Origin: a virus
Length of the DNA stretch: 19,309 nucleotides
Strand: one strand, 5' to 3'
IMG/VR virus record: IMGVR_UViG_3300029725_000137
Span: 1-19,309 of that record
The notes beneath the pieces are model-generated. The model was not told where the DNA came from. It was given only the letters and a program-made list of their open reading frames with translations, and searched no databases. Both the position numbers and the translations under genes were made by a program. Shown here piece by piece: positions 1 to 19,309 of the stretch; position 1 is the stretch's first letter; each line of letters begins with the position of its first letter.

Positions 1-2058
1 TCAGGGTAACTGGTTGATTTCCACGACAGCGGTCTGGGCATAGTGGTGGCCGACAAAAACCCACACTTGCCGGGGTTGCCCGGTCGTGTTGGGGGCAAGC
101 GTCAGGGTGATTTGGCCGCCGCCGGCTGGTATCTGCTCCGCGGATTGGCTGCACCATACGGCGGCGGGGTCATGCCCGCACATGGTATCGTTCAGCACAT
201 AGATAGCTTCGGAGAGGACGGAAGACGCCGTCAATGTCACGTCGCCGCCAGAGGCCGGCACTTCATGCGCAGAAGCCGTTACTTCCGGAACCGGTTTAGG
301 AGTCACACCCTCCATTACCGTGTCCTTCATGAGGACCCAGGAGTTGGTTATGCCCAGTGAGGGTGCATTGTCTATCCTTATCCCTCCCATACGGAGGCCC
401 GCCTGATAAGTCCCGCTGACTTCGTGTGCCTTGAATTTGGTTGTAAGGCATGCTGTGTTGCCGGCGCCCCAAAAGGAGGAAGCCATATCCATTACATATT
501 GCTTGTCCACAAACAAGGCCCAGCGATTGTAAATCTCCTGGTCATCGGGGTTGGGTGGCGTCATGGCCGCGGAGACGTAGGTAAAAGCCGGAGCCAATGC
601 CCAAACATAATGGGAATCTACCTTGAGGGGTCCGTAAAACGTCCCCCTTATCAAGGCCGACTTATTGCTTCCCAGATACCCCATAGGGTAGGTAGTGATC
701 TGATACGCCGGCACATTGTCGCCCCCTCTCGCTCCATTGACTGTATTGTTTTGCGGATACCTGTAATTTGCATTATCCCAGGCATAATCCACCCAGTGCA
801 CAGGATGTGAATAGCAGGACGCCAGCGGATCGGTAGTCGTAGCGTACCCCTGGGCAGTGCTGCCCAAGAGAACCGACACCTTGTCGGAGCCAAGTATCCG
901 CCAGACGCAAGCGGCAGCATATTCGTTATTTCTATTGTTGCCCATGTAATTGGCAAATTTCCATGATCCCGTGGATTTGCCGATAACAGAAACACCCCCT
1001 GCCGCCGTCATGGTTAATACCATATCGCACAAGTCGTTATTAAATACTCCCTTCTTTAGAGAGGCGTTAGCGGTAGCAATTGTGTAGCTTGTGTTCAACG
1101 ACTGGGCTTCCACCAAGGCGGTCACCCATGACGGAATGACGGATTCCAGAAAATAGTTGGCGCGGCTCCATTGGCCGGCAGCCGTCATGGTTATCATTCC
1201 CTCATAGGAAATGGCATTCTGCCCTGTGGCGGGCAGCGGCACACGGACTCCTTCGATTGCGGTGATCGTGGCGTCGTAGGTCTGCGGCTGCGTCCAGTTA
1301 TAAGACCCGTCCGGATTAACATCCCCGGTATCTCCTTTCTCGCCACGGGGCCCTTGGGGACCCTCCGGCCCCTCGGGTCCTTGCGGGCCGGCAGGACCCT
1401 GCGGTCCGGTTTCTCCAATGTCGCCTTTTGGTCCCTGCTCTCCGGTAGCTCCCTGAGGACCTTGAGGCCCTGCGTCACCCCTGGGACCCTGAGGGCCTTC
1501 GGGGCCGGTTTCGCCCGGTTCCCCCTGCGGGCCTGGTGGGCCTTCGGGACCGGCGTCTCCTTTGGGGATGGTAAACGACAACAGATAAGAGCCCGCTTCC
1601 GAGCCTTTCACGGCTTCCGCTGCGGCAGGAGTGCCAGGCTCGCCGGTAGTGACCCGGTCCACCGAAAGATTGAAATTCTCGGCGTACTTCTTGGCCTGCT
1701 CCGCGTACCAGGCGGCGCTTGACGCATTATCAAGCACGACTTGCACGCATCCGCTTTCTTCCGGCAGCTGCACGACGACCGCACCCGCTACCGCCTGCTG
1801 CTCGTCCGGCAAGTCCGGCGTCACCCGGCCCGAAGAAACAAAGCATCCGTAGAGAAGCGGGCTTTCCTCGTTGCCGTCATCCATGAAGACATCGTAGGAC
1901 CACATGCCCGCGGGCACCGAGGCCCACGAAATCACGCCGTTGCCCTCGTCGTCACGGGAAAAGCCGAACTCGGCAATACCCGTCTTGAGGCGAACGGCTC
2001 CGCGCAGGGTGACGCCGCCCATATCGACGGGATCTCCCTGGAAATCCACCACGCGCAC
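1..2058 (-). CDS. Collagen-like tail fibre / receptor-binding protein with a C-terminal BACON/Ig-like beta-sandwich
   Basis: 685-aa ORF with GTG at 2058..2056 and TGA at 3..1. It has a long uninterrupted G-X-Y run ([37 protein letters not shown]...GEKGDTG). The last ~90 aa (..[57 protein letters not shown]) resemble a BACON-type domain. The frame stays open upstream and has an in-frame AGG at 2118..2116, a possible alternative start. Confidence 0.8.
1324..1560 (-). repeat. Collagen-like Gly-X-Y triplet repeat region inside the fibre gene
   Basis: About 26 consecutive GXY triplets in the translated product. At the DNA level this shows as a GC-rich ggn-ccn periodicity. Confidence 0.9.
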
Positions 2059-2125
2059 GACCAGTGACTGGTTGAGTCCCGTGACGGTCCGTATATCATA
2101 TTTGCCTGCCTGTTGCCTGAAGCGG

Positions 2126-2158
2126 AAGAAAAAGGGTTGCGGGGCGCTTTTGCGCCCC
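2126..2158 (-). terminator. Candidate intrinsic terminator after the 2172..2783 gene
   Basis: Perfect hairpin GGGGCGC-TTTT-GCGCCCC (2141-2147 / 2152-2158). On the minus strand it is followed by GCAACCC and then TTTTTCTT. The U-run is displaced 7 nt from the stem, so this is a weak or leaky terminator at best. Confidence 0.4.
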
Positions 2159-2171
2159 TTGGGTTGGTATG

Positions 2172-2783: not shown

Positions 2784-2837
2784 ATTGCGATTGCTGTAAG
2801 TAGGGTCGTAAGTATTAGGCCTGATGCTTGAATGGGT

Positions 2838-5523: not shown

Positions 5524-5996
5524 CGGTAGGTGCTTCTCATGGGGTTGAACCAGGGGCGCTGAGTGAAGCGCGGCATCATGTAGGCGGGGTCCGCCGGGGC
5601 GGCGCCGTCTACGCTTTCCGGCAGCATTTCGCCTCGTGCATAGCGGGCCAGCATCTCATCGGCCGATTCAGCGGCTTTCTGGCGCGTTTCGGTCAGGTTG
5701 ATCTGGTAGCGCAGGTAAAGCTGCCGGATGATCAGCGGCCACGCCAGGGAGCGCATGCTCTGCGGGATGTCGTACATGCCGCTATTCTGGAGCGATTGCC
5801 GCAGGGCGAGGTTGTTGGCCAGCGCCCCGCGGATGGCCATGCAGACATCGTTGACCGCCTCCATCATGACGTCCCGGTAGTCCAGGCTGCGCAGCTCCCC
5901 GGCTTTCACCAGGGCGTCGCGCTCCGCAGTGTTGAGGCCGAGGAGTCGGTCGGCTTCATCCGTAGTGATGGTGGACCAGGCGGGAAAGGCGGACAT
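5520..5996 (-). CDS. Head-tail connector-position protein, DUF1320 / Mu gp36-like by position and size
   Basis: 158 aa, ATG at 5996, immediately downstream of the capsid gene. In Mu/B3-like head modules this is the usual place for gp36-like proteins. Confidence 0.5.
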   Translation of the reverse strand: MSAFPAWSTITTDEADRLLGLNTAERDALVKAGELRSLDYRDVMMEAVNDVCMAIRGALANNLALRQSLQNSGMYDIPQSMRSLAWPLIIRQLYLRYQINLTETRQKAAESADEMLARYARGEMLPESVDGAAPADPAYMMPRFTQRPWFNPMRSTYR

Positions 5997-6017
5997 GATG
6001 GAGGCGGGTTGGGTGGG

Positions 6018-6941
6018 TTAAGCCGTGGCCGTCGCGTCGATGCGGACGATGGCGGACGGGTTGGTCAGCTTGGTCAGCGAGTAGACGCGGTTGGTTACCA
6101 GCGTCAAAGCGGGCGTCGGCTTGTATTCCGTGATGACTTCGCGGCGGAGCTTGCCGGACAAACCAAACGTCTTGATGGCAGAGGCGTCGAACTGCGTCGG
6201 GGAGTCTTCCTTGTACAGGACATAGACTTCGTTCTCCATGATGGTCTTGGCGTCGCCGGAAGCGTCGCGGTAGGGCATGGCTGCGATGTAAATATCCCTG
6301 ATAGGCCGAATCAGCGCATTGCGGAGCAGGTCTTCGTTGAAGAGGCCGACACTGTTGAATGACACCACCTGTCTGGCAATGGGGTTGGCTCGCAGGAGCT
6401 GCCAGGCGTTGATGCCAAAGACGATGGTGTTAGGCATGTGTCCAGTCGCCGCATTGATGGACAGGATGGCATTATCCAGATCCGTCAGCGGATTCTTCTG
6501 TTCGTTGGCCCAGTCCCCGTAACCGGCTGCGGCAGGCAACTGGCTGGTGATGAGCTTGGCACGTTCATATTCATACGAGGTCACAAACTGTGATTCGATG
6601 AGCTTGTATTCCGCCAGGGTGATAGCCTGCGCCTTTTCGCGGTTGACGCCCAGCAAGGCGTCCGGAATCGGCAAGGTTAAGCCGTACCCCTGAAGGGTGT
6701 CGGTTTCGTTCCTGCCGCGCAGGACGGTCTGGCGGGGAGGTTCGCCCGGTCCCACCTGGATCGGCTGGACCGTAAAGGCAGATTCCGTGTCCCAGACCTT
6801 GTACTGGAAATTGAGGTCGTAAACCGGGACGATCGGCGCAATGCGGCTGATAATGGAGTTCTCTTCGGTGTTTCCGGAACCCGCAGAATAAGCGGTCAGA
6901 ACATCGGTGAACTGGACGGCTGAGCAAAATGGAGTAGCCCT
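6018..6941 (-). CDS. Major capsid protein, lambda gpE-like family, with proposed AGG start
   Basis: The track ORF is 6018..6755, starting at GTG. The same frame is open back to the TAA at 6965..6963. The upstream part reads [AGG]ATPFCSAVQFTDVLTAYSAGSGNTEENSIISRIAPIVPVYDLNFQYKVWDTESAFTVQPIQ.., which looks like genuine capsid N-terminal sequence. No in-frame ATG/GTG/TTG lies in 6756-6962, and there is an in-frame AGG at 6941..6939. This start gives 307 aa versus an implausible 245 aa. The gene sits after the protease and the decoration-position gene. Confidence 0.7.
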   Translation of the reverse strand, partial: RATPFCSAVQFTDVLTAYSAGSGNTEENSIISRIAPIVPVYDLNFQYKVWDTESAFTVQPIQVGPGEPPRQTVLRGRNETDTLQGYGLTLPIPDALLGVNREKAQAITLAEYKLIESQFVTSYEYERAKLITSQLPAAAGYGDWANEQKNPLTDLDNAILSINAATGHMPNTIVFGINAWQLLRANPIARQVVSFNSVGLFNEDLLRNALIRPIRDIYIAAMPYRDASGDAKTIMENEVYVLYKEDSPTQFDASAIKTFGLSGKLRREVITEYKPTPALTLVTNRVYSLTKLTNPSAIVRIDATATA

Positions 6942-6974
6942 TGTTCTTTGTCTTTCTATTGATTAGTGTTGATG

Positions 6975-7406
6975 CTACACAGCTGCGACCTGGTAGGAGG
7001 GGACGAATCCGATTTCCACCATGCCCTGTTCCCACTGGGCGTGGATCACGCGGGCATAGACAGTTTCTCCGCTGGCGGCGGCCTTCCATGCTCCGTTGGC
7101 CGTGATGGTGAGGGGCGTTCCGGCGTTGATCGTGCCCGGCGTGTCGGAAAGAGCTGCCTTGATCAGGCCTGCATACATGCCGACGAGAGCGGCGACGCAG
7201 GTTCCCTGGTTGGGCTGCCCTTGCAGGACTACGCCGAGCAGCTGTGTCTGCGTAGGGATGGTGGACAACGGCGTCCCGATAAACTCGGGGATGTCCGGGT
7301 TGGCGGTCAGCGCCACGACGGTTCCTTCCTGTCCGCACAGGTCAACACCCTCCGGGGTGTTGAAATAGACGATGGCGCTTTTCTGGGTTACATTGAGTGA
7401 TGGCAT
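6975..7406 (-). CDS. Head decoration-position protein, DUF2190-like
   Basis: 143 aa with ATG at 7406 and TAG at 6977..6975. It lies between protease/scaffold and major capsid, the position lambda D occupies. Confidence 0.55.
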   Translation of the reverse strand: MPSLNVTQKSAIVYFNTPEGVDLCGQEGTVVALTANPDIPEFIGTPLSTIPTQTQLLGVVLQGQPNQGTCVAALVGMYAGLIKAALSDTPGTINAGTPLTITANGAWKAAASGETVYARVIHAQWEQGMVEIGFVPSYQVAAV

Positions 7407-7426
7407 TGGTTTGTATCAGGTTGGGG

Positions 7427-8542
7427 TTATCGTTCGGAGGTTACAATGTAGCCTTCTTCGGTGGCTTTCTGGAAAGCGTCGTACCGCTTCATGCCGCCCT
7501 TCATCAATTCGTCCACGCGGTTCCGGAATCCGTCGATGGATTCCTTTTTGCGGAACGGATTGGGCGGCGCCTGGGTGGCACGGCGGTTCAAGGACGTTCT
7601 TCCAACTGGATTGCGGCGGCTTTCGTCAACAACGTCATGCGGCGGCTTTGACTTCGCGGACCGATTGAGAGCCTTGACAAAGGCGCCCAGTGCGGCGGGG
7701 CTTTCCCGGAGAGAGTTTTTCAGCTCTTCCCGGCGTTCTTCCGTAAACTCCTCGCGTTCTTCCTCGTCCAGTGCGTTTTCATACGTACTGACGGCTTCGT
7801 CCACTTCGGCGTTCACGGCATTCTTCTCTCTCTTTTCCAGATCGAGAAGTTCATCCACGCGGCGGAGGATTTCCCTGGACATGTCATCGGTTCCGTCAAA
7901 TTCGACGTCCAATTTATCGAGCAGGGAATCAAACAGAGCCCGCTGGGCTCGGTCCATTTCCTTCGCCGGGTATTCTTCGGCGTTTTCTTTCATCGTTTTG
8001 TCTTGGTTGGTTTCCCCCTCTTCGGGGCTTTTGTTTTCGCCCCCGTCCTTGTCGGGGGAAGTCTGTCTATTGATGAGCGGGCGCTTGCCCTTGATGCGCG
8101 GACGGTTGGTCAACGCGAATCCCGTCAGGCGAGTGGGAGTGTAAACGCCGTCCTCCAAGGTCATGCCGTCCATATACTCCGTAGACGATTGCGTGTACTC
8201 CTTGTCGATAAGCATTTGCAGTCCGCGTGGCGTCCAGTCGATAAAACCGTACAATTCCAGGCTGCCTGACGGATCCCGGTAGGTATCCAGTTTTTTCAGC
8301 CAGCCCAGGGCCCGCGTATCGCGGCTGACGTCATGGCTGAGGTGATCGCCGTCAATCAGCATGCCGGGGCCATCGAAAGTGCGGGAATTGAATTCATCCA
8401 CCATTCTTTGAATGACCTCTTCATCAATGCGAAGGAGCGCGGGTCCTTCCCCGTAGTCAACCTCGTGATCGCCGGATTTCTCGATGTGATACCATCCGTT
8501 CTTCGGATCGCTTAAATCATTGATTTGTTTTGTACTGATCAT
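7427..8542 (-). CDS. Mu-like prophage protein I family head protease fused to an acidic scaffold-like C-terminal half
   Basis: N-terminus ..NGWYHIEKSGDHEVDYGEG..LLRIDEEVIQRMVDEFNS..GMLIDGDHLSHD.. matches the Mu gpI protease family pattern as I recall it. The C-terminal ~190 aa is highly charged and coiled-coil-like (scaffold-like). ATG at 8542 overlaps the portal 3' end by 26 nt. Confidence 0.7.
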   Translation of the reverse strand: MISTKQINDLSDPKNGWYHIEKSGDHEVDYGEGPALLRIDEEVIQRMVDEFNSRTFDGPGMLIDGDHLSHDVSRDTRALGWLKKLDTYRDPSGSLELYGFIDWTPRGLQMLIDKEYTQSSTEYMDGMTLEDGVYTPTRLTGFALTNRPRIKGKRPLINRQTSPDKDGGENKSPEEGETNQDKTMKENAEEYPAKEMDRAQRALFDSLLDKLDVEFDGTDDMSREILRRVDELLDLEKREKNAVNAEVDEAVSTYENALDEEEREEFTEERREELKNSLRESPAALGAFVKALNRSAKSKPPHDVVDESRRNPVGRTSLNRRATQAPPNPFRKKESIDGFRNRVDELMKGGMKRYDAFQKATEEGYIVTSER

Positions 8543-9881
8543 CGTAAAACCCTTTCATCAGCGCATTGTTGATAAGCTCCCTCAATTGTTCAAAAGCGTC
8601 GGGCGGTATACCGTTATCTTCAGCTTCCCGGTTGGATGCTGCCACAGGAGGAGCGGCATCCCGGGTGTCCTCGACGGACATGCCGAGCTTCTCTTCAACT
8701 TCCGTCTTTTCCAACCGCACGCCTCCATCCGCAAGAGCGGCGATTTCTTCCGCCTTCTGCAGCGGCGTCTGGACGGTATCAAAGGTGATCTGGAGTCGGG
8801 CCAGCGGTTCTGCGTCTCCCAGCACAAGAGGATTAACGGCAGTATTAAAGGCTTCCGCCACTTTGCTGCACACAGCGGACACGACGGAATTCCAGCTATC
8901 TGTATGCGCTCCCCCGGCCAGGGTGCCGGATCCCGATTCGTTCAACACAGTCAGAGTGCCGGCCATCACAAAGCGTACCTGATCCTTGTCGGCAAGATTG
9001 ATACGCGAGAGGAAATAGTTTTCATTGATGGAGGATGCCTTGAGGGGTTCCGCCGTACATCCGGGAGGCAGGACGACGGATGCACCTGACTTGAGTTCTT
9101 CGCAGGCGCGCTCAAGTGCGTCCATGACAGCGGCGCTTGCTTCTTTGGGAGCCGTGATGATGACCGGGGCGGACCCGTAGCGGTCCATGTGGTTGTCCCA
9201 GACAATCTTGGCATGGTTGCGCTCAAAGGAGGCTCGGGAGGCAGGAAACAGGATGGGATAGGGATGCTCCATCACCACAAGCGTTTCCTCTTCCACGCTT
9301 TCTCCCGTATCCACGCCAATATGGCATTGTGGGTTAAACTGCCACTCGTTCAGCTCGCCCGGGCGCACCCAATAACGCTGCGGAATAAATTCAAACCTCC
9401 GGCCCCAGGCGTCCTCGATAAATTGCAAATGGGCGTAGCCGTAAAATACCGCGGAAGCGAGTTGCCCAAACGCCGGCTGAAGGCCGTTAATGGAGTTGTA
9501 GAATTCTTCCAGGGCGTTTTTCTGTCTCTGTGCTTCGGGGCTGTCATTGGCGGCGTCAATTTTCCATCCCTGCATGGACACGCTTTCAATCATCCGCGAA
9601 TAGAGCATGCCCAGCATGCCGTCCGAATAGATTACCTCGTCCCAAATGAGCATTTGCCGCGCAAAGGCTCCCCTTCTGGCCTCATTGCGGGCATCAATGA
9701 GGGTTTGCAGGCCCGCCCCCTGGAGAGGATCCCAGTATTCAAACCATTGGGGGCGGCCAGGAAGGCGGCTCCGGTCCGTTAAGGCGCGTCGGGCAAGGTC
9801 TGTCTCAAGCTCCTTGATTCTGGTCTCTTGTTGTGCGACCAGCTTGGGAGCGTTGATGATATTTTTGACGGCGTTTAACCT
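8517..9881 (-). CDS. Portal protein, Mu gp29 / DUF935-like, with proposed AGG start
   Basis: The track ORF is 8517..9653 (ATG). The frame continues open upstream and reads [AGG]LNAVKNIINAPKLVAQQETRIKELETDLARRALTDRSRLPGRPQWFEYWDPLQGAGLQTLIDARNEARRGAFARQ-MLIWDEVIYSDG.., with no in-frame ATG/GTG/TTG. An in-frame AGG lies at 9881..9879, 23 nt downstream of the tRNA 3' end. This start gives 454 aa, a typical portal size. Confidence 0.72.
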   Translation of the reverse strand, partial: RLNAVKNIINAPKLVAQQETRIKELETDLARRALTDRSRLPGRPQWFEYWDPLQGAGLQTLIDARNEARRGAFARQMLIWDEVIYSDGMLGMLYSRMIESVSMQGWKIDAANDSPEAQRQKNALEEFYNSINGLQPAFGQLASAVFYGYAHLQFIEDAWGRRFEFIPQRYWVRPGELNEWQFNPQCHIGVDTGESVEEETLVVMEHPYPILFPASRASFERNHAKIVWDNHMDRYGSAPVIITAPKEASAAVMDALERACEELKSGASVVLPPGCTAEPLKASSINENYFLSRINLADKDQVRFVMAGTLTVLNESGSGTLAGGAHTDSWNSVVSAVCSKVAEAFNTAVNPLVLGDAEPLARLQITFDTVQTPLQKAEEIAALADGGVRLEKTEVEEKLGMSVEDTRDAAPPVAASNREAEDNGIPPDAFEQLRELINNALMKGFYDDQYKTNQ

Positions 9882-9904
9882 GCGACTGAGACGGTGAGAA
9901 ATAT

Positions 9905-9978
9905 TGGTTGCAGGGGGAGGAGTTGAACCTCCGACACGGGGACAGGAACCCCGTATGATACCGTTTCACCACCCTGCG
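9905..9978 (-). tRNA. tRNA with anticodon CCU, formally tRNA-Arg(CCT), carrying initiator-tRNA-type acceptor and anticodon stems
   Basis: 74-nt cloverleaf folded by hand. Acceptor CGCAGGG/CCCTGCA has 6 Watson-Crick pairs plus a C1-A72 mismatch. Then U8 G9, D-stem GUGA/UCAU, D-loop AACGGUA, A26. Anticodon stem is CGGGG/CCCCG and the loop is UUCCUGU, with anticodon CCU corresponding to plus-strand agg at 9944-9946. Variable loop UGUC, T-stem GGAGG/CCUCC, T-loop UUCAACU, discriminator A73, and an encoded CCA. Confidence 0.9.
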
Positions 9979-9994
9979 ATTGAATATACATCAA

Positions 9995-10023
9995 TACATA
10001 TAGATATGTTGATATATTGTCAA
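9995..10023 (-). promoter_or_regulatory. Candidate sigma70-type promoter dedicated to the tRNA
   Basis: On the minus strand, TTGACA (10023..10018) is followed by a 17-nt spacer and TATGTA (10000..9995). This lies in a 47-bp AT-rich, partly palindromic spacer between the terL stop (10026) and the tRNA 5' end (9978). Confidence 0.45.
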
Positions 10024-10025
10024 CC

Positions 10026-11399
10026 CTAATACCTGCCGATGGAACGATTTCTTTTTGGTCTTGTGACATACCAGGCTCCAAGCTCCCTGACCAAGCCGCT
10101 GTGTTTTCGTGCATGCCACGCCATGACAAGAGCGTCGGCCCGGTCGGGAGAACGAACTCCACGCTTTGCCATGTCCTCCTTGCTCTCGATTTTGACACGC
10201 CCGATCGCGTCTGTCTGGACGCGCGGTGCGACCAGCTGTTCGATTGTGTCCTCGTCGATGTCGAGAATGAGCTCTTTTTCCTCGATCGCACGGGCGAGCG
10301 CTCTCCAGGCCTGGGCGCGCAGATTGACAAAGGCCTGCGTATCGTCGGACGGAAAGCCGCCCCGGTAGGAGTGTATCGGGAAGCCCTCGGCCCGGAAGTC
10401 GTCGATGATGGGGAGCCCGAGTCCATCACCGTCGGCAAAGATACTGTCGGCGGGAATGCCAAGCTCGGCGGCTTTGCGCCGGAACCGTCCGCGGGCTCCG
10501 ACGGTGTCGGGGGCTGACCAGTGGTCGGCAATGAAGAAGCGATTGCCCTGCCCGGCCGCAAAGACGTTTTCGTCGCCCCCGGCGGCGAAGTCAAAGCCGC
10601 CGCAGGTCTCCCCGGTGTCCAAAAAGGGAGGCGGGTTGTTGAGCAGCTCCATGATGGCGCGGCGGGAAATGACGGATTGCCCGTCAAGGTCCGTGAATTC
10701 GCCGAGGATGGCCGAGCGGTAGAAGGAGGACTGTTCGCCGTATTCTTTTTTCAGGCGTTCGGCCTTGCCTGGATCGTTGATTTCGATGTGCGGGCAATCC
10801 TCGTATTTAACGCGGATTTTGTAGTAGAGGGATGAATTTTTGTGGAAGCAGTCGTAAAAGGTTCCGGAATCGGCACCCGGCGACGAGGTGATGAACGCGT
10901 TGAAGAGCGTGCAGCGGGAAACAGCGGTGAAGATGGGGTCCGGGATGGTCTTGGCTTCATCGAGGACGTAAAAGACCGGGTCAACGTCGGGCGAGATTTT
11001 CGGGTGCCATCCTTCCGCGCGTCCGGCGTTGTCGGTGGAGAATCCCACGGCAAATCCTCCTTCCGGCGTGCGGATTTCGGTTTTGTTGAATGTCCAGCCG
11101 TCAAAGAAGGGGTTATCCATATAACGGCGAAGCGCGGGAAAGAGCTGTTTTTCTACCTGCATCCACGATGATGACGTGACTGGCACCTGACCCCGAGGAA
11201 AATAGGTAAGGAAACACAGGATTGCCGGCGCAATGGATAGGCTCGTCTTTCCCGATCCGTTCGGAGCAACCATGGCCACGCTTCGGCCTCCCAGCCTCAC
11301 CTTTCCGAGAAGCAACGCCTTGATGGCCTCGATTTGCCAGGGATAAGGATCGAGTCCGAGGATGTGACGGAGGAAGAAGCTGACGGGGAGATGATTCCT
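10026..11399 (-). CDS. terL: Terminase large subunit with proposed AGG start
   Basis: Walker A is APNGSGKT, Walker B-like is VFYVLDEA, and the C-terminal half looks like the nuclease domain (..DFAAGGDENV.., ..ADGDGLG.., ..SPDRADAL..). The track ORF starts at TTG 11315. The frame is open to the TAA at 11408..11406, and the upstream part reads [AGG]NHLPVSFFLRHILGLDPYPWQIEAIKA-LLLGKV... The PYPWQ motif, typical of TerL N-termini, lies upstream of the first canonical start. In-frame AGG at 11399..11397. Confidence 0.8.
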   Translation of the reverse strand, partial: RNHLPVSFFLRHILGLDPYPWQIEAIKALLLGKVRLGGRSVAMVAPNGSGKTSLSIAPAILCFLTYFPRGQVPVTSSSWMQVEKQLFPALRRYMDNPFFDGWTFNKTEIRTPEGGFAVGFSTDNAGRAEGWHPKISPDVDPVFYVLDEAKTIPDPIFTAVSRCTLFNAFITSSPGADSGTFYDCFHKNSSLYYKIRVKYEDCPHIEINDPGKAERLKKEYGEQSSFYRSAILGEFTDLDGQSVISRRAIMELLNNPPPFLDTGETCGGFDFAAGGDENVFAAGQGNRFFIADHWSAPDTVGARGRFRRKAAELGIPADSIFADGDGLGLPIIDDFRAEGFPIHSYRGGFPSDDTQAFVNLRAQAWRALARAIEEKELILDIDEDTIEQLVAPRVQTDAIGRVKIESKEDMAKRGVRSPDRADALVMAWHARKHSGLVRELGAWYVTRPKRNRSIGRY

Positions 11400-11405
11400 G
11401 CTCGG

Positions 11406-11921
11406 TTAAGGGTGGAGTTTGCCGGCAATGGTTTCCAGCGCGGTTTTCTCGTCTTCCTGCAGCTGGGCGAGCTGCTCGGGGTCCAGCGTGATTTTCCGTT
11501 CCAGCGGCGCCCCGGGAACGCCGGCGACGTCCTGGCGGACCCGGTCTCCAAATTTTTCGGGAGCGAAACGGGCAGCGACTTTCAGCCGGGTTTCAATGGC
11601 GAGCTTCTTGGCAGCGACGGAGGCGGATCCGCAGTCGGGGTCGAGGGCAACCTGGGCAGCGGCATCTGACAAAGACTGACACTCGTCGAGCATGGCTTCC
11701 GACTGCGCTTCCCGCGCGCGCTGAATGAGTTTACAAAACTCTTCCCGTTCGTGCCTCCATCTCCAGACAGTTAAAACCTCCGGCATGTGATCGTCCGAGC
11801 AAATGGACTTCATCGTTTCCCCGTTGGCTAAGCGAGAGGCTATCTCGGCAGCTAACGCCTCCGTATAGAGGCTGGGCCGTCCTATTTTCTTGTTGGTGGT
11901 AGGTGATTGCTTCTTTTTCCT
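11406..11921 (-). CDS. terS: Terminase small subunit with proposed AGG start
   Basis: The C-terminal part ..RAREAQSEAMLDE..AAKKLAIETRLKVAARFAPEKFGDRV.. matches a widespread TerS family pattern. The track ORF starts at ATG 11813. The frame is open to the TAG at 11930..11928 and reads [AGG]KKKQSPTTNKKIGRPSLYTEALAAEIASRLANGET-MKSICSDDHMPEVLTVWRW.., the classic HTH N-terminus (GRPS.YT.E.A..I..RLA.GES) of this family. No in-frame ATG/GTG/TTG is present, and there is an in-frame AGG at 11921..11919. Confidence 0.75.
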   Translation of the reverse strand, partial: RKKKQSPTTNKKIGRPSLYTEALAAEIASRLANGETMKSICSDDHMPEVLTVWRWRHEREEFCKLIQRAREAQSEAMLDECQSLSDAAAQVALDPDCGSASVAAKKLAIETRLKVAARFAPEKFGDRVRQDVAGVPGAPLERKITLDPEQLAQLQEDEKTALETIAGKLHP

Positions 11922-11929
11922 GCGGGTCT

Positions 11930-11959
11930 ACTCTAGAGGACAAGTGGCTAACAAATCAA
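11930..11959 (-). promoter_or_regulatory. Weak candidate late-operon promoter
   Basis: On the minus strand, TTGATT (11959..11954) is followed by an 18-nt spacer and TAGAGT (11935..11930). A transcription start there would fall 1-4 nt before the terS AGG, giving a near-leaderless mRNA. The match is weak. Confidence 0.25.
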
Positions 11960-11991
11960 GCACTCTGTTTGTTCATTCCTTTCTGGGGCCA

Positions 11992-12020
11992 TTGACAAAT
12001 CTGACCCTCTCACATATACA
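11992..12020 (+). promoter_or_regulatory. Candidate sigma70-type promoter for the plus-strand accessory block
   Basis: TTGACA (11992-11997), a 17-nt spacer, then TATACA (12015-12020). The GTG of the next ORF is at 12027, so the transcript would be leaderless or nearly so. Confidence 0.45.
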
Positions 12021-12026
12021 GATTTT

Positions 12027-12545
12027 GTGAAAAAGTGTCCTATATGCGGCAAGGATGTTCCGCCGCGCTACGGATCGCGGGAAAGAGTGTACTGCTCCCG
12101 CGCATGTCTCAAGGCACACTATGACGCCGCCTGGGAAACTATCACCTGCCCCGTGTGCGGAAAGGAATTCCGCGCTAAAAAACTCTTTCGGCGGAAACAT
12201 TGCTCTTATCCTTGCGCGAATGCAGCCCAGAAGGGGCGGAAAATCACGTCAGAAGCCTTTCAGGAGGCTTGCAAGCATCGGGGAGTTCCCGGCCCCAGGA
12301 AGCACCCCAGAACAGGGAAATTTGAGACAAATTGCCATGCAAAGATATGGCTGCTGGAATCCCCGGATGGAGAGAAAGTCACGGCTCGGAATCTCAAACT
12401 CTACATGATAGACCGGTACGGCGAAGAAAAGGGGAAAAAGGTCTATAAGCTCCTGGTTTGTGCTGCACAACGCTTCCGTAAATGCGGACATGGCGGCGGC
12501 GCCGGATGGCGGGTACTTGCCGCCCCTGCCGTCCCGAAGGAATAA
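12027..12545 (+). CDS. Tandem zinc-ribbon (FCS/TRASH-like) protein with a C-terminal phage DNA-binding-like tail
   Basis: 172 aa starting at GTG. It has two copies of CPxCGK-x(11-13)-(Y/H)CSxxC: CPICGKDVPPRYGSRERVYCSRAC and CPVCGKEFRAKKLFRRKHCSYPC. The C-terminal ..CHAKIWLLESPDGEKVTARNLKLYM...GWRV resembles tails seen on phage homing-endonuclease-like ORFs. That resemblance is from memory and low confidence. Confidence 0.6.
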   Translation: MKKCPICGKDVPPRYGSRERVYCSRACLKAHYDAAWETITCPVCGKEFRAKKLFRRKHCSYPCANAAQKGRKITSEAFQEACKHRGVPGPRKHPRTGKFETNCHAKIWLLESPDGEKVTARNLKLYMIDRYGEEKGKKVYKLLVCAAQRFRKCGHGGGAGWRVLAAPAVPKE

Positions 12546-12576
12546 AAAAGGGCAGCCCCGAAGAACCGCCCTTTTT
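12544..12576 (+). terminator. Candidate bidirectional-looking intrinsic terminator
   Basis: An A-run (12544-12549) precedes stem GGGCAG (12550-12555) / CCGCCC (12566-12571), which has one mismatch and a 10-nt loop. It is followed by TTTTT (12572-12576), directly after the stop of 12027..12545. Confidence 0.45.
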
Positions 12577-12746
12577 AAGGGAATGAGCGTTTCCGCTCGT
12601 GCTGATCTTGTGATCGTTTTAATCCACAGCCCCGGAGGGCTGACGTGTTCCTAGAAAGAACAAATTACTTCTCTCATATTTTGCGCCAGACCGCAAGCAA
12701 AAACGGAATGACAACTTTTTTCACCTTTTTTCATTTTTTCTCTTGC

Positions 12747-12769
12747 GTTACTATAAATTTTATAGTAAC
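12747..12769. promoter_or_regulatory. Perfect 23-bp palindrome, a candidate operator, in the AT-rich promoter region of the acidic-protein gene
   Basis: GTTACTATAAA-T-TTTATAGTAAC has 11-bp arms, all 11 positions complementary. It contains TATAAA/TATAGT -10-like hexamers and lies 75 bp upstream of ATG 12844. Confidence 0.5.
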
Positions 12770-12843
12770 TTAATTTTGTTGACGGGAGGTAAGGGACCGA
12801 ACGAAGACATAATCCAAACAACAAAACTAGAAAGAACAAGACA

Positions 12844-13167
12844 ATGAACGATAACAAAATCATCACCACGGAAGACGGAGAAGAAATCAACCTGACCGCT
12901 CTTGAACGTGAATTCGGCAGCTACGACTTTGAAGGCAAGACCTATTATGCAGCGCGCCAGATGGAATACACCAACAGGGTTTTCCCTGGCTCCTACGCGG
13001 ACAAATACGAGGACGGCAGCTACATGGAAGAATGGTCTGCTCCTGGCTATGATGCAGAAGGGAACAAGGTTGAAATCTTCATGGCCTTTGAACAAATGAC
13101 GGGCGAAGAAATTGACGGAGAAAACCTCAACTGGACGCAGGACGCTTCCCGCGTTGAAGCTCGCTAA
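12844..13167 (+). CDS. Small, strongly acidic protein (107 aa), function unknown
   Basis: ATG start. By my count there are about 25 D/E versus 9 K/R. It has its own AT-rich upstream region and a downstream hairpin. Confidence 0.65.
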   Translation: MNDNKIITTEDGEEINLTALEREFGSYDFEGKTYYAARQMEYTNRVFPGSYADKYEDGSYMEEWSAPGYDAEGNKVEIFMAFEQMTGEEIDGENLNWTQDASRVEAR

Positions 13168-13176
13168 ATAACCCCC

Positions 13177-13204: not shown

Positions 13205-13208
13205 CACT

Positions 13209-14513
13209 ATGACCGCACAAGAATTTATCGACTGGCTTCAAACTGCCAACAATCTTCCAAATCCTACCCAAGCTGTAAAAAGGGCCGCGCAGATGATGCG
13301 GGTGACGGAAGATGTTATTTGGAAATGGTTAAATACTAAAAAACCATACCCCACGCCTGAATACATGCAATTACTCATGGATTTATTGCATGAGAAATAC
13401 CGAGAAAAGAGGTTTTACCGCATTCTTTCTCACGAACAGCGTGAAGAGATGCGGTCCATGTTGGGCAAAAAACCTGATCTGGAAATCGCCGAGCTACTCG
13501 GAATAGCGCGCGTCACGGTCCAGACTGAACGCTATAAATTAGGTATCAAAAAGTATTGCAGCCCTGAAGCAATCCGCATCCAACATGATGAAGAGCTTAT
13601 TGCAGTGCTCGGAAAAATTCCTGACTCGGAGTGTGCCAAGAAGTTTGGATACTCAAATTCCAGAGTAGCCTACCTTAGAAAGAAATTAGGGATTAAGTCA
13701 TATAAGGGGCCGCGTAAACCCCGTCAGCCACGAGACCCAAATAAACCACACAAGAAAAAAGAGTATCCCGAAGAGTTAATTAACATGCTTGGAAAGACCC
13801 CGGATGATGAAATTGCTAAAAAATTCGGTTATTCCAAGGCAGGAATTGCGCTTATTAGAAAAAAGATGGGCATTCCATCATTACCTGATACTAAATTCCC
13901 CAAAATGAAACGCGAAGAAATGCTATCTATGCTTGGAAAATTTCCTGATAGCGAAATTGCTGAAAAGTTTGGAATATCGCTTAATTTTGTAGCGCGGAAC
14001 CGTAGAAAATTAAAAATTGCTCAAGCTCCATACTCCCCCATTAAGGATGCGGACAAGGATATGATTCTTAATTTATTGGGAAGAGTATCAGATTTAAAAA
14101 TTTCAAAAAAAACAGGGTACAGCCCATATGTAATTAAAAAATTTAGAGAACAGAACAAAATTAAGCCTTTCAATAAAAGCATTTTAGAAAGATTTTCACC
14201 GGACCAACGTAAAAAACTCTTATCTATGCTTGGGAAAGTTTATGATAGAGTAATAGCCGAAAAATTTAATATTGATAACGAGGTAGTAAGAAGAATTAGA
14301 CAGAAATTGAATGTTCCGGCATTACGTGAGGAAAAAAGCTTGCAAGAAACAATAGAAAGGGACGAATACATTAAATCCCTGCTGGGCACAATGACTGATA
14401 AAGAAGTCGCTAATAAAACAGGCAAATCAATACAAGTTATCGGAAAAGCAAGGAGAAAATTAAATATCCCGGCGTTTGATACAAGGGGTCGGTCTACAAA
14501 GAAACAATCTTGA
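13209..14513 (+). CDS. Multi-HTH DNA-binding protein with an N-terminal HTH plus 7 tandem GerE / sigma-70-region-4-like repeats
   Basis: 434 aa with 7 repeats of the pattern (E/D)x(M/L)(L/I)xxLGKxPDxEIAxKFGxSxxxVxxxRRKLGI(P/K). Examples are LGKKPDLEIAELLGIARVTVQTERYKLGI, LGKIPDSECAKKFGYSNSRVAYLRKKLGI, LGKTPDDEIAKKFGYSKAGIALIRKKMGI, LGKFPDSEIAEKFGISLNFVARNRRKLKI, LGRVSDLKISKKTGYSPYVIKKFREQNKI, LGKVYDRVIAEKFNIDNEVVRRIRQKLNV and LGTMTDKEVANKTGKSIQVIGKARRKLNI. The period is 48-60 aa. The DNA is visibly AT-richer than the rest of the window. Confidence 0.8.
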   Translation: MTAQEFIDWLQTANNLPNPTQAVKRAAQMMRVTEDVIWKWLNTKKPYPTPEYMQLLMDLLHEKYREKRFYRILSHEQREEMRSMLGKKPDLEIAELLGIARVTVQTERYKLGIKKYCSPEAIRIQHDEELIAVLGKIPDSECAKKFGYSNSRVAYLRKKLGIKSYKGPRKPRQPRDPNKPHKKKEYPEELINMLGKTPDDEIAKKFGYSKAGIALIRKKMGIPSLPDTKFPKMKREEMLSMLGKFPDSEIAEKFGISLNFVARNRRKLKIAQAPYSPIKDADKDMILNLLGRVSDLKISKKTGYSPYVIKKFREQNKIKPFNKSILERFSPDQRKKLLSMLGKVYDRVIAEKFNIDNEVVRRIRQKLNVPALREEKSLQETIERDEYIKSLLGTMTDKEVANKTGKSIQVIGKARRKLNIPAFDTRGRSTKKQS

Positions 14514-14537
14514 TCTTTCCAAGATAAAAAGCGCCCC

Positions 14538-14632
14538 TATACGAGATTCCAGGGGGTATACGAGATTCCAGGGGGTATACGAGATTCCAGGGGGTATACG
14601 AGATTCCAGGGGGTATACGAGATTCCAAGGCT
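14538..14632. repeat. Head-to-tail tandem array of a 19-bp unit, 4 perfect copies plus 1 degenerate copy
   Basis: The unit TATACGAGATTCCAGGGGG occurs at 14538, 14557, 14576 and 14595. A degenerate copy TATACGAGATTCCAAGGCT is at 14614. The array fills the convergent gap between the multi-HTH gene stop (14513) and the loader stop (14631-14633). Confidence 0.95.
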
Positions 14633-15353
14633 ATTTCCTGGGATGGTAGTTGATCTCGCGGTAGGACTGCCACTCGCACGGGATGGCGCCGCCTGTCATG
14701 TGCATCCGGGAAGTAATGGAGGGACCAAGACTCGGCTCGACGTCTTCCCCGATGAGATTGGAAATGACCACAGTAATTTTTCCGTCCTGGTGACGGCTGT
14801 CGATAAGACGGTCAATGGAATATTGAGAAAAATCCGATCTCTTGAGCTCGTGGAATTCGTCAATAACCAAATAGGTAGGACGCTTGAACGCCCTGGCAAT
14901 ATCATTTTCCCGCTTGGACTCCCGCAAATCAAGGCAGTAGTCATACGCTTTGACGTATTTGACGGACCTTCCGAGCCGCACCAGGCCGCGGGCCAGGGAT
15001 GTTGCCATCACAGTTTTGCCAGTGCCGCAGGGCCCATGAAGCGCAATGATTGCTCCGGACTTCCGAGCAAAGTCCGCTAAACGGTCTCTGGCGGCTTTCC
15101 ACGGGCTTTCTGCATCGTTTACCCTATCCAGAGCTAAAACGGCCATTTTGGGGAAGCCAGAGGCCAGCAAGAGGTGAAATTCTTCCTGGGCCTGTTGCAT
15201 GGCTTCCCGCGTGAGCCGTTCCTGCTCCACTTTGGCGTCAAGTTCGGGGTCGTCCGATGCGAGGGCCGAAAGCCTGTCCAGCAGGGCGTCGATAGACCCG
15301 TCTCCAAACATATCCCGCACGTTGTGCAAATTCCGTGATGTGTTAATATCCAT
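14631..15353 (-). CDS. DnaC/IstB-like AAA+ ATPase, a replicative helicase loader
   Basis: Walker A is HGPCGTGKT and Walker B is YLVIDEF. I start the gene at MDINTSRNL (ATG 15353..15351), preceded by GGAG 5 nt upstream. It overlaps the upstream TAA (15345..15343). The track's N-terminal extension overlaps the upstream gene. Confidence 0.8.
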   Translation of the reverse strand: MDINTSRNLHNVRDMFGDGSIDALLDRLSALASDDPELDAKVEQERLTREAMQQAQEEFHLLLASGFPKMAVLALDRVNDAESPWKAARDRLADFARKSGAIIALHGPCGTGKTVMATSLARGLVRLGRSVKYVKAYDYCLDLRESKRENDIARAFKRPTYLVIDEFHELKRSDFSQYSIDRLIDSRHQDGKITVVISNLIGEDVEPSLGPSITSRMHMTGGAIPCEWQSYREINYHPRK

Positions 15354-16104
15354 AAGTTCTCCTTCCTGGTGTGGTTGTTGATGGTGAGGGCGTTCCTCTT
15401 CGGTTTTCGGCATAGCGCAAGGCGTAAGCCAATGCGGCGGCTTGCCAGTTGTTGATGGGGTTCCCCTTGGCATCCACCCATCCGCAAGCCTCTTTATCAG
15501 CGTAGAAAAGCATTGATAATTCGTTGATTTGAGATTCATTGAGAAGCAGACGGCCCCTCAATGCTTCGGCTTGGAGGTAGGCTTTCACTTTGTCGGAATC
15601 CTCCGGCAAAGCTCGTTGCCGGGAATAGGCTGTGTTTTCTCCAATATTATTATTCTCTTCTCTTCTCTTCTCTGGTCGGACATTGTGTCGGACAACGGTC
15701 GGACATGGTGTCGGACTTTTGTCGGACGCCATGTCGGAAACGTTGTCGGATTGGTCTTTCAGAGATCGCCGGATTCGTTTTGCTTCCGCTTCCAAGGCGC
15801 GGGCCTTGGAGGAATTGCCGTTGTGGCGGTCAAAGTTGGGGATTACAAGGGCGCCTTCACGGCCTTGCAACCAGCCAACGGAGACAAGGCCGCGGGCAAA
15901 TCCGGGACAATAAACAACCCGGTCGATGTGTGCATATTTCGTCTTAAGGATTCCGTCTTGAGTATTGGCATCGGCCCACGCCCAAAACCGCCACAGTTTC
16001 CCCAGCACAAAATCAGGGTCATCCATGTGCAGTATTTCCGCCAGCTTCACCACTTCGGGCTTGTCGGGTGTTGTGTGTTCAACTTTTATCCAGTCTCCGG
16101 CCAT
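15343..16104 (-). CDS. Phage replisome organizer / replication initiator-like protein
   Basis: I start the gene at MAGDWIKVEHTTPDKPEVVKLAEIL..GKLWRFWAWAD (ATG 16104..16102). This N-terminal pattern is typical of phage replication-organizer proteins. It lies directly upstream of the DnaC-like loader and contains an internal iteron array. Confidence 0.65.
   Translation of the reverse strand: MAGDWIKVEHTTPDKPEVVKLAEILHMDDPDFVLGKLWRFWAWADANTQDGILKTKYAHIDRVVYCPGFARGLVSVGWLQGREGALVIPNFDRHNGNSSKARALEAEAKRIRRSLKDQSDNVSDMASDKSPTPCPTVVRHNVRPEKRREENNNIGENTAYSRQRALPEDSDKVKAYLQAEALRGRLLLNESQINELSMLFYADKEACGWVDAKGNPINNWQAAALAYALRYAENRRGTPSPSTTTPGRRTYGY
15675..15751. repeat. Seven phased GTCGGA(C) iterons inside the replisome-organizer gene; candidate ori
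   Basis: (T/G)GTCGGAC begins at 15675, 15687, 15698, 15710, 15721, 15733 and 15745, a spacing of 11-12 bp. It is immediately flanked at 15643-15674 by the AT/pyrimidine-rich tract aatattattattctcttctcttctcttctct. Confidence 0.7.
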
Positions 16105-17221: not shown

Positions 17222-17637
17222 GCGAGCCTCCTTTCCAGTATCGCCGCTTGCTCGTCAGTGAGGTACTGCCAGCTTTGCGGCGGACGGGTCATGCCGATGG
17301 CCGAGAGCGGCACGGCGGCGGGGAGCCTCACGGGGTCCATGACTCCCCAGGCGTGGCAGGGGAGATAGGCGCGGATGTGCTCTTCCGTCACGCAGGCTTC
17401 TTTGATTAGCAAGTCCAAGGCATCCCCGAATGGCATGTGCCTCAACGGGATAATACACCACAACCGACACATGCCGATGATGGCCCGCTCCCCGTCTTTC
17501 CTGGACTCGTAGAGCCACAGAGTGACGTGCTCCCCGCGGGGGAGGAGCGGCGCATTCTTTCGCAGCTCCCACCCCTTTTCCCCGGACAAAATTTTTCCGG
17601 AGAAAGGCCGCCTGACGGATGCGAGGATGTTAATCAT
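17218..17637 (-). CDS. ASCH (PUA-like) domain protein
   Basis: 139 aa. N-terminus MINILASVRRPFSGKILSGEKGWELRKN...VTLWLYES....IIG fits the ASCH fold pattern common in phage early regions. AAGGAGG lies 7 nt upstream of the ATG. Confidence 0.6.
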   Translation of the reverse strand: MINILASVRRPFSGKILSGEKGWELRKNAPLLPRGEHVTLWLYESRKDGERAIIGMCRLWCIIPLRHMPFGDALDLLIKEACVTEEHIRAYLPCHAWGVMDPVRLPAAVPLSAIGMTRPPQSWQYLTDEQAAILERRLA

Positions 17638-17776
17638 TGCTGGCCTCCTTTTTGTGATTTAGAGCAGCAGAAACCGCTATACTCAATCCTTTCAATTTTC
17701 CTGCCTGATAAAGCAGATACCCAAAGCAAGCAATGTTAGCCAAAATAGATATAAGTTGTAAAATATTGTTAATCAT
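17630..17776 (-). CDS. Small hydrophobic, membrane-type protein, 48 aa; absent from the ORF track
   Basis: My translation is MINNILQLISILANIACFGYLLYQAGKLKGLSIAVSAALNHKKEASND*. AAGGAGG lies 7 nt upstream. It forms an ATGA overlap with the upstream gene stop (17773-17776), and its stop overlaps the ASCH start. Confidence 0.45.
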   Translation of the reverse strand: MINNILQLISILANIACFGYLLYQAGKLKGLSIAVSAALNHKKEASND

Positions 17777-18873: not shown

Positions 18874-19214
18874 TCCGCTTCTCCTTCCTGGATTGTTTCG
18901 ATTTCCCAACCCGTTTTTGTCTGCTTGGCAGCGATAAAAACAAAGGGGAACTTGTCGGCGGCCGTCTTGATTTTTACCCTGGCATCGTCGCGCCAAAAGC
19001 CTTTCACTTCGTGGAATTCAAGAGTGCCGTCTGGGCGGACAACCATGAAATCCGGCGTGTATGAGCAGCGGTTCCCCAAGATCAGTTTGACGGCTTCAAA
19101 CTTAAATTCCCGTATTTCCCCCTTGTTTTGGAGGTCAGACAGGTAAAAGCCATAGGCGGCTTCCGTCTTGTTCATCACGCCGGGCCGATGGATAGCTCTT
19201 GCCCTGGCTCTCAT
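18870..19214 (-). CDS. DUF1064-type PD-(D/E)XK nuclease, phage Holliday-junction-resolvase-like
   Basis: ..NKTEAAYGFYLSDLQNKGEIREFKFEAVKLIL..SYTPDFMVVRPDGTLEFHEVKGFW..DARVKIK fits the DUF1064 pattern (DF...E.KG). GGGAGG lies upstream, and the start forms an ATGA overlap with the upstream ORF. Confidence 0.65.
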   Translation of the reverse strand: MRARARAIHRPGVMNKTEAAYGFYLSDLQNKGEIREFKFEAVKLILGNRCSYTPDFMVVRPDGTLEFHEVKGFWRDDARVKIKTAADKFPFVFIAAKQTKTGWEIETIQEGEAE

Positions 19215-19309
19215 GCCGCCCTCCCTTCTACGGCCGGGCGGATTGCCGGCATGATCCGAGTGTAAGCGTCAAGGTATTTTGGGCCGAATTCGTCCAGAGC
19301 CGCCTTAAT
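19211..19309 (-). CDS. 3' end of an upstream early gene, truncated by the window edge
   Basis: Open frame reading ..IKAALDEFGPKYLDAYTRIMPAIRPAVEGRAA*, ending in an ATGA overlap at 19211-19214. Confidence 0.5.
   Translation of the reverse strand: MKAALDEFGPKYLDAYTRIMPAIRPAVEGRAA

Follow-up and report, generated by a model that had tools for sequence, protein, structure and literature searches.

Conserved AGG start sites and a co-inherited initiator-like tRNA(CCU) in the late operon of an Akkermansia phage

The AGG-bounded genes of the late operon

The subject of this study is a set of late genes, together with a tRNA gene that lies among them, in a temperate phage of Akkermansia muciniphila. 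The window, i.e. the whole stretch of DNA that was analyzed, spans 19,309 nucleotides (nt) and corresponds to positions 1 to 19,309 of the IMG/VR record IMGVR_UViG_3300029725_000137. The late operon occupies its minus strand from ∼11.96 kb down to position 1, and the remainder holds the replication module and further early genes, many of which are ATG-started. Six late genes carry an in-frame AGG at the place where a start codon is expected. A reading of the sequence alone (hereafter the sequence-only reading) had listed four of them, terS, terL, portal and major capsid, with AGG coordinates that are all correct; its count was too low, since the major tail and tail fibre genes make six. The genes and the tRNA are arranged as follows.

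11406..11921, minus strand: terS, small terminase, Sf6-like; AGG at 11921..11919, in the context TAG ACC CGC AGG
10026..11399, minus strand: terL, large terminase; AGG at 11399..11397, in the context TAA CCG AGC AGG
9905..9978, minus strand: tRNA with anticodon CCU (ARAGORN; Rfam tRNA, 54 bits), the sole tRNA in the window
8517..9881, minus strand: portal, Portal_Mu/DUF935; AGG at 9881..9879, 23 nt past the tRNA 3′ end (9905)
6018..6941, minus strand: major capsid protein, 307 amino acids; AGG at 6941..6939, the 8th codon after a TAA
2172..2822, minus strand: major tail protein; AGG at 2822..2820, the default gene-caller start being GTG 2783
1..2118, minus strand: collagen-repeat tail fibre; AGG at 2118..2116

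The main comparison set comprises 45 related loci (L001, L008-L051) whose portals are 82–90% identical. One of them, L001, is a prophage from a metagenome-assembled genome of A. muciniphila and is 87% identical to the window across 13 kb. An identity of 82% is found both for Akkermansia phage DTMo-2021a (L057) and for pJ30893 (strain JCM 30893; L056, NZ_AP021899.1), a circular element of 32.8 kb. The latter encodes a tyrosine integrase, terminase, portal and amidase and, deposited as a ‘plasmid’, is the circular genome of an AGG-using phage.

The claim that the terS, terL, portal and capsid frames are open upstream of their first canonical start is confirmed by the codon indices. Counted between stops, the terS open reading frame (ORF; 11927..11406, minus strand) reaches its first ATG, GTG or TTG at codon index 38, the terL ORF (11405..10026, minus strand) a TTG at index 30 and the portal ORF (9965..8517, minus strand) its first canonical start at index 104. 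In the capsid ORF (6962..6018, minus strand) the first such codon is a GTG at index 69, from which a gene caller would obtain the 245-amino-acid product that had been anticipated. The upstream translation had also been described as family-typical, and homology spans it. Pfam recognizes an Sf6-like small terminase and a Mu-type portal in the window; the Sf6_terminase profile begins at residue 21 of the terS ORF, 18 residues upstream of the ATG (residue 39), and the Portal_Mu profile likewise starts before the portal reaches its ATG. In over 40 distant capsid homologues (∼300–320 amino acids), residues 3–15 align to residues 3–15 of the AGG-started capsid, and not from residue 63, the position of the GTG; collinearity sets in at residue ∼3–8.

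These observations bear on the proposal that the genes truly start at the downstream ATG, GTG or TTG, the upstream open frames being conserved for some other reason. Such starts are the ones called by gene callers and by NCBI PGAP, and in some relatives an in-frame TTG, GTG or ATG lies not far downstream. Adopting them would, however, remove the helix-turn-helix of the small terminase (profile positions 1–18), the large terminase region through the motif DPYPWQ, 76 conserved residues of the portal and 62 of the capsid, and the removed regions align to full-length homologues. Differences between the window and L001 in these N-terminal extensions fall chiefly at third codon positions, and in a tRNA-less relative (L052, see below) the proteins begin at the codon equivalent to the AGG. 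Downstream starts are scarcely credible on this evidence and, at the level of sequence, the comparisons show AGG to be the true N-terminal codon of these genes.

Gene callers had been expected to misplace the starts, and the public annotation of pJ30893 is wrong in precisely this manner. The portal coding sequence (CDS) has its start placed within the tRNA gene, at a CTG, no terS is annotated, terL, the major tail gene and the fibre gene are cut to a GTG, and the capsid gene is cut to an internal ATG. The seven AGG genes of this element coincide exactly with the five CDSs to which PGAP assigns a non-ATG start, plus the truncated capsid and the terS that went unannotated, and every gene outside the AGG set is ATG-started. 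The seventh candidate (L056 7819..10002, minus strand) reads ‘ttttacaagcagc AGG aac cac gac’. Its AGG stands 9 codons upstream of the TTG chosen by PGAP for a CDS at 7819..9975 (718 amino acids), is kept in phage DTMo-2021a and lies beyond the window end. In a phage group that is common in the human gut, gene callers in this way truncate, over-extend or miss the genes for terminase, portal, capsid and tail proteins.

Conservation and replacement of the start triplet

All 174 observations of the start sites in relatives show AGG, with flanks, spacing and upstream frame varying around it. As a control, 13 AGG codons from the interior of these late genes were followed; they are AGG in 136 of 547 observations (25%), none is invariant, and the replacements are mostly CGN or AGA. 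By this measure, it is the triplet AGG, and not arginine, that is shown to be conserved at the start sites. In terS, the AGG is invariant in 37–38 relatives with 17 different upstream contexts, several of which are unrelated to each other, and no in-frame ATG, GTG or TTG occurs nearby in these relatives. In terL, it is found in 41 of 42 relatives and in 21 contexts, the exception being L044, which has an ATG one codon downstream; the distance from the terS stop is 5, 6 or 9 nt. The portal AGG is invariant in 46–47 relatives with a tRNA-to-AGG spacer of 15, 16, 20, 22 or 23 nt, the capsid AGG in 43–47, eight of which have a frame-breaking 1-nt insertion directly upstream, and the major tail AGG in 33–35, with 18 contexts. 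For the tail fibre, the start ‘C AGG CAR CAG GCA GGC AAA TAT’ is common to L001, pJ30893 and DTMo-2021a.

This variation in flank, spacer and frame means that the sequence upstream of the AGG is non-coding and excludes readthrough from the upstream gene, and with it a terS-terL fusion. A broader form of the same idea holds that ribosomes need no start codon at these ORFs and reach them from the upstream gene, through readthrough of a stop codon, frameshifting or termination-reinitiation. It can appeal to the window, where the terL AGG lies in the terS frame, 6 nt past the TAA, and where bounding stops stand near the AGGs. Yet the 5-nt spacing found in seven loci places the terL AGG out of the terS frame, terS opens the operon behind a divergent intergenic region, the portal gene follows a tRNA gene across a 15–23-nt spacer, and the spacing and frame of the capsid and tail genes relative to the upstream stop vary. 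The AGG invariance would also be left unexplained, and such routes are considered highly improbable.

Sequencing error, which could have produced the same picture, is excluded as well: the AGGs and the tRNA recur in 45 independent assemblies, in the complete circular pJ30893 and in a deposited phage genome. Together with the third-position substitutions, this recurrence rules out decaying pseudogenes and assembly error. Near-canonical starts (ATT, ATC, ATA, CTG) beside the AGGs were likewise rejected, none of them being conserved; the ATC of terL is GTC in L001.

The most informative comparison comes from relatives that do without the tRNA. A protein search with the portal led to a 62%-identical relative (P0037) on the Logan contigs L052 and L053, in which ARAGORN finds no tRNA over 13 kb and 9 kb, respectively, and in which all late genes have canonical starts. 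The spacer between terL and the portal gene is 94 nt in L052 and retains only a promoter-like TTGACA element. In free-end global alignments, the L052 start falls at offset 0 to the window AGG for the portal (TTG) and for the capsid, major tail and fibre (ATG), and at an offset of −2 codons for terL (ATG). The capsid is 307 amino acids long in both phages, and the GTG of the major tail gene corresponds to a conserved internal Val in the L052 alignment. Given that AGG makes up 0.46% of late-gene codons, the chance of four exact start coincidences is ∼10^−9. Two outcomes by which the sequence-only reading could have failed are thereby answered in its favour, as a third, sequencing error, was above: the L052 starts and the distant capsids point to the AGG-equivalent codon and not to the internal TTG, GTG or ATG, and the sole tRNA-less lineage (L052/L053) does not keep the AGGs.

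Intermediate situations are seen in tRNA-bearing phages. L054, with a 64%-identical portal, has the tRNA and a portal AGG at the same codon, and its terL begins with ATG; in both L054 and L044 this terL ATG is one codon off the AGG position. In a neighbour-joining tree of the portal (no bootstrap), the tRNA-less L052 is nested among tRNA-bearing lineages, which suggests that the tRNA was lost in the L052 lineage with coordinated reversion of at least five starts. Scans of IMG/VR with the L052 and L054 portals gave no further tRNA-less or intermediate relatives. As a separate observation on this contig, positions 1..27 of L052 are a Nextera transposase adapter (AGATGTGTATAAGAGACAG) at the contig end, so that its first bases are not biological.

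The phage tRNA and its initiator-like build

The sole tRNA of the window had been described as reading AGG and resembling an initiator, a description that its structure upholds. The acceptor stem opens with the mismatch C1xA72, marked by cmscan as a non-standard 1:72 pair, and continues with the formyltransferase determinants G2:C71 and C3:G70; A73 and an encoded CCA follow. The anticodon stem is CGGGG/CCCCG and the loop UUCCUGU. One tRNA(CCU) per genome, always between terL and the portal gene, is present in all 45 relatives, L054, pJ30893 and DTMo-2021a, and throughout this survey the start AGG is shown to co-occur with it. Among 15 tRNA variants from 46 loci, C1xA72, A73, CCA and the CCT anticodon are constant, and G2:C71 with C3:G70 is kept in all except L031 (G2:U71). 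The mismatch persists despite covariation of the acceptor stem (CGCGGGA/UCCCGCA; CGCGGAU/AUCCGCA) and is shared by L054. Most variants have three G:C pairs (29:41, 30:40, 31:39) beside the anticodon loop, and the L017 group and L027 have U31:G39.

Elongator tRNAs need a Watson-Crick 1:72 pair for EF-Tu. A mismatch of the C1xA72 type, G2:C71, C3:G70, A73 and three G:C pairs are the brand of bacterial initiators (PMC5389676). The phage tRNAs are 67–76% identical to E. coli tRNAfMet, the comparison sequence having been verified as the four-copy tRNA-Met gene, versus 48–58% to E. coli argW tRNA-Arg(CCU), which has G1:C72, A37 and an A-containing D loop. The anticodon is CCU at every locus, and not the CAU that goes with methionine identity in the initiator class. 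Judged by these features, the phage tRNA is initiator-like in build and is not a strict tRNAfMet by anticodon. It was also considered as a remnant of an attachment site, a possibility ruled out by its full length, its location in the middle of the late operon and its distance from the integrase in pJ30893. A general pattern scan of IMG/VR for CGCGG-type initiator-like CCU tRNAs gave no matches, and Pfam revealed no aminoacyl-tRNA synthetase, formyltransferase or initiation-factor genes among ten other ORFs scanned in the window.

The conventional explanation would be that the gene encodes an ordinary elongator tRNA-Arg(CCU) to make up for a rare codon, with the AGG starts being weakly read by the host tRNAfMet. 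ARAGORN labels the gene tRNA-Arg from its anticodon, AGG is rare, phages often bring rare-codon tRNAs, and the native initiator gives measurable low-level initiation at AGG in E. coli reporters (PMC6868393). There is, however, little to supplement: internal AGG amounts to 18 of 3886 late-gene codons (0.46%), a scarcity on which rare-codon supplementation was rejected, and it reaches 1.6% in the early genes, i.e. 3.5 times the late-gene rate. Of the marks of an elongator tRNA-Arg(CCU), the anticodon is present, and a paired 1:72, A37, A20 and AGG-rich genes are absent; the conserved C1xA72 does not occur in bacterial elongators, position 37 is G, and the tRNA is closer to tRNAfMet than to argW. 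With the native tRNAfMet alone, initiation at AGG is poor and is rejected by IF3 (PMC6868393), which makes it implausible for a major capsid protein. An elongator would moreover leave unexplained the switch of every AGG to ATG or TTG in the tRNA-less relative. This explanation is regarded as very unlikely.

The sequence around the AGG sites has also been considered as a signal in its own right. Six of the seven AGG sites have C at −1, the capsid site having A, and the tRNA of the window has G37; in tRNAfMet, position 37 pairs with mRNA position −1 (PMC10018350). The L054 portal, with A at −1 and U37 in the tRNA, fits such pairing, but the group of tRNAs with A37 still faces C at −1. A pairing between position 37 and −1 in the phage system is therefore suggestive only, as neither the capsid site nor the A37 group conforms. 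Alternatively, (C)AGG could be a signal in the RNA, for instance for processing, cleavage or the binding of a protein, with initiation proceeding by another mechanism. The recurrence of C at −1 and the fact that CGCAGG also forms the tRNA 5′ end speak for this possibility. The motif is, however, merely 3–4 nt long, it sits exactly at the codon aligned with the ATG or TTG of L052, a co-inherited tRNA of initiator-like build has the complementary anticodon, and no other start candidate exists at the AGG sites. A role as an RNA signal in place of a start codon appears most improbable.

Probable initiation at AGG and its possible role in late translation

The best explanation, to which we give a probability of roughly 0.8, is that a phage-encoded orthogonal initiator makes AGG a start codon at the ribosome entry points of the late operon. 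An orthogonal pair consists of a non-canonical codon at the start of ORFs and an initiator-type tRNA with the matching anticodon, and this is the combination found. Initiation at AGG through the phage tRNA, as the sequence-only reading had proposed, is strongly supported at the sequence level by the conservation of the triplet, the start swaps, co-occurrence and loss and the architecture of the tRNA, and also by engineered precedent. What speaks for a putative dependence of AGG expression on the tRNA is co-occurrence and loss: tRNA-bearing phages have AGG, and L052 has ATG or TTG. Mechanistically, tRNA(CCU) would pair with AGG in the ribosomal P site at the six genes of the window. It would be charged, probably with arginine by ArgRS through C35 and U36, though A20 is missing; C1xA72, G2:C71 and C3:G70 would mediate its formylation, and IF2 would deliver it to the ribosome.

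The layout of the operon gives this scheme its potential weight. AGG genes open the operon or follow positive gaps (6, 23 after the tRNA, 33, 15 and 53 nt), and of the eight late genes with an ATG start, six overlap the stop of their predecessor. New ribosomes would thus load at the AGGs, leaving the entire module reliant on the tRNA for its translation. If late proteins are made largely by way of an initiator that the phage itself supplies, the arrangement may act as a gate or threshold on their synthesis, which makes the previously suggested ‘translational lock on late genes’ plausible. Its biological purpose may be to gate late translation, to set a threshold for it or to protect it. No GGAGG-type Shine-Dalgarno sequence precedes any AGG start, as had been noted, but this absence does not discriminate, because the ATG-started late genes also lack one. 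The early genes are ATG-started and several have AGGAGG/GGAGG-type Shine-Dalgarno sequences (e.g. 17637..17660, 19214..19235).

Three further elements lie next to AGG genes or the tRNA.

11930..11959, minus strand: promoter-like element before terS; −35 TTGATT (11959..11954), 18-nt spacer, −10 TAGAGT (11935..11930)
9983..10023, minus strand: promoter-like element before the tRNA; TTGACA (10023..10018), palindromic repeats, −10-like TATATT (9988..9983)
∼2125..2157, minus strand: G+C-rich hairpin GGGGCGC-AAAA-GCGCCCC with a T-run 7 nt on, directly upstream of the fibre AGG

Promoter positions before terS were compared across 37 loci. In the window, the −10 element ends 8 nt before the AGG, and all 16 distinct terS upstream contexts have a sigma-70-like match of 8–10/12 with a −10 ending 6 or 8 nt before the AGG; the remaining AGG sites show no comparable match. 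A leaderless or near-leaderless terS mRNA, with its 5′ end on the AGG or close beside it, may therefore be produced. In E. coli, AUG has been reported to be required for leaderless translation and, to our knowledge, known leaderless mRNAs start with AUG. The TTGACA before the tRNA is present in all main-clade relatives and in L054, the exception being L044 (TTTACA), and palindromic repeats of the ATATCAA/TTGATAT type lie between the terL stop and the tRNA. In the tRNA-less L052, TTGACA-17-TATGTT is retained before the portal (1595..1625), as would be expected after a clean deletion of the tRNA. The hairpin upstream of the fibre gene is kept in structure, and not in sequence, at the equivalent sites of L001, pJ30893 and DTMo-2021a; it could be a terminator, an attenuator or a structure that positions the start.

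Several points weigh against initiation at AGG by a dedicated initiator. The tRNA lacks the A11:U24 of E. coli-type initiators and has U11:A24 (GUGA/UCAY) in the window and main clade. Ten loci have two G:C pairs and A29:U41 in the anticodon stem, although an au/GC/GC variant of this stem occurs in natural initiators (PMC5389676). Most relatives have the T-loop UCCAACU, with C at position 55; at the equivalent of window 9925..9919 these variants read UCCAACU or UCCAAUU, the near-universal U55 being replaced by C, and the usual UUC T-loop is found in the window (UUCAACU), L030, L044 and L054. Three singleton variants are also altered at G19 of the D loop. The tRNA has U at position 20 (in the numbering used here) and G37 instead of A37; A20 is an identity element for ArgRS in E. 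coli. The tRNA-less state is represented by a single independent lineage, and a further 11.5 kb of its contig lies outside the scan. In 20 relatives, an in-frame TTG is found nine codons past the terL AGG, and the terS of L054 has a GTG two codons past the AGG, so that some genes in some phages may possess a fallback start. As for the proposed gate, the tRNA resides within the very operon that it is supposed to control and has its own promoter-like element.

The precedent that had been invoked, namely that an anticodon-mutant tRNAfMet initiates at the complementary non-AUG codon, is found in engineered amber, AAC and CCU initiators. The initiator tRNA (i-tRNA) variant with anticodon CUA is in routine use (PMC5389676). 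The i-tRNA-CCU/AGG pair is the best-performing engineered orthogonal initiation pair in E. coli and exceeded AUG in Nissle 1917, in a report that mentions no natural counterpart (bioRxiv 10.64898/2026.04.16.719103). Like the phage tRNA, the engineered E. coli i-tRNAs (CUA, AAC, CCU) combine an initiator body (1:72 mismatch, three G:C pairs) with a non-CAU anticodon and a complementary start. They are laboratory constructs derived from E. coli metY, whereas the phage system is natural, clade-conserved and tied to structural genes. The body of the phage tRNA is also no simple point mutant of tRNAfMet; in addition to U11:A24, it departs from the E. coli initiator in its 7-nt D loop, 4-nt variable region and G37.

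Recoding by suppressor tRNAs is a related phenomenon. Stop-codon recoding in crAss-like, Lak and other gut phages has been proposed to time the expression of lytic genes (PMC10879173, PMC11210395), and there too a phage tRNA alters the decoding of late or structural genes and misleads gene callers. Suppressor tRNAs, however, act on stop codons during elongation and termination, whereas the AGG phage would use a sense codon for initiation. No in-frame stop besides each terminal one occurs within the 14 late ORFs, and the anticodon is CCU, not CUA, UCA or UUA. Natural non-AUG starts (GUG, UUG, AUU, CUG and others) deviate from AUG at one wobble-tolerated position and are read by the host initiator; AGG differs from AUG centrally, and a dedicated complementary initiator is supplied by the phage.

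Literature searches for natural phage or cellular non-CAU initiator tRNAs, or for AGG starts, gave engineered systems only. Confirmation would make this the first orthogonal initiation system encoded by a virus, and the first natural case found in which a dedicated initiator tRNA turns a sense codon that does not belong to the AUG family into a start. Start-codon identity, long held to be fixed by tRNAfMet(CAU), would prove reassignable in nature, as stop codons are. For synthetic biology, a naturally optimized i-tRNA-CCU/AGG pair would be on offer, and for Akkermansia, which is medically relevant, the arrangement suggests a new layer of control on the lysis-lysogeny choice or on the expression of late genes.

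A divergent contig may extend the theme. L063 (6.8 kb; reads SRR26188688) was reached through a 40%-identical capsid homologue, its portal is ∼42–52% identical, and its tRNA (2035..2110) lies between terL and the portal gene. This tRNA, which resembles tRNAfMet still more closely, has an 8-nt anticodon loop (AUCCCUUA), for which ARAGORN gives the anticodon ‘ccct’, the mismatch C1xA72, a D stem GAGC/GCUC with A11:U24, a variable loop AGGAC and an anticodon stem CCGGG/CCCGG; it is 76% identical to E. coli tRNAfMet. The N-termini of the L063 terL and capsid have no canonical start, and the candidate starts are the following.

L063 593..596: C-AGGT-AAC, terL
L063 2128..2131: C-AGGG-TCA, 18 nt after the tRNA
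L063 5038..5041: C-TGGG-ACA, capsid

At these sites the frame continues after four bases; AGG is one base off-frame and the in-frame triplet is GGT or GGG. Either a four-base start read by CCCU or a GGN start read by CCC would account for this arrangement. The portal could instead start at a GTG 17 codons further on, terL at an ATT in its frame and the capsid at one of its in-frame CTGs. Relatives of L063 were found neither in IMG/VR nor in the protein database, nor when viral and metagenome contigs were scanned for tRNA patterns. The L063 tRNA has its 8-nt anticodon loop in common with tRNAs that decode quadruplets, such as the sufD frameshift suppressor and engineered AGGN decoders, but the known quadruplet cases act in elongation; we know of no description of a quadruplet-reading initiator. 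If true, the four-base start of L063 would be the first natural quadruplet start codon. In our estimation rather unlikely, one may imagine that a clade of Akkermansia phages evolved a private initiation code in which the CCU initiator makes AGG the start at every entry point of the late operon, probably including a leaderless terS, as a master switch for virions, and in which L063, as a sister lineage, uses four-base starts (AGGN/NGGG).

Other features were noted outside the late operon. Directly downstream of a gene for an IstB/DnaC-like ATPase (15539..14631, minus strand), positions 14538..14627 hold 4.7 perfect tandem copies of a 19-nt unit (TATACGAGATTCCAGGGGG), and a second array, of imperfect 11/35-nt units, lies at 15675..15750 within the gene next to that of the ATPase; both arrays look like iterons or origin repeats. 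The gene at 13209..14513 is on the plus strand, opposite to the phage operons, with a G+C content of 38–45% versus 55–60% elsewhere. Its product of 434 amino acids contains several helix-turn-helix domains, and the gene may be a recently acquired regulator or moron.

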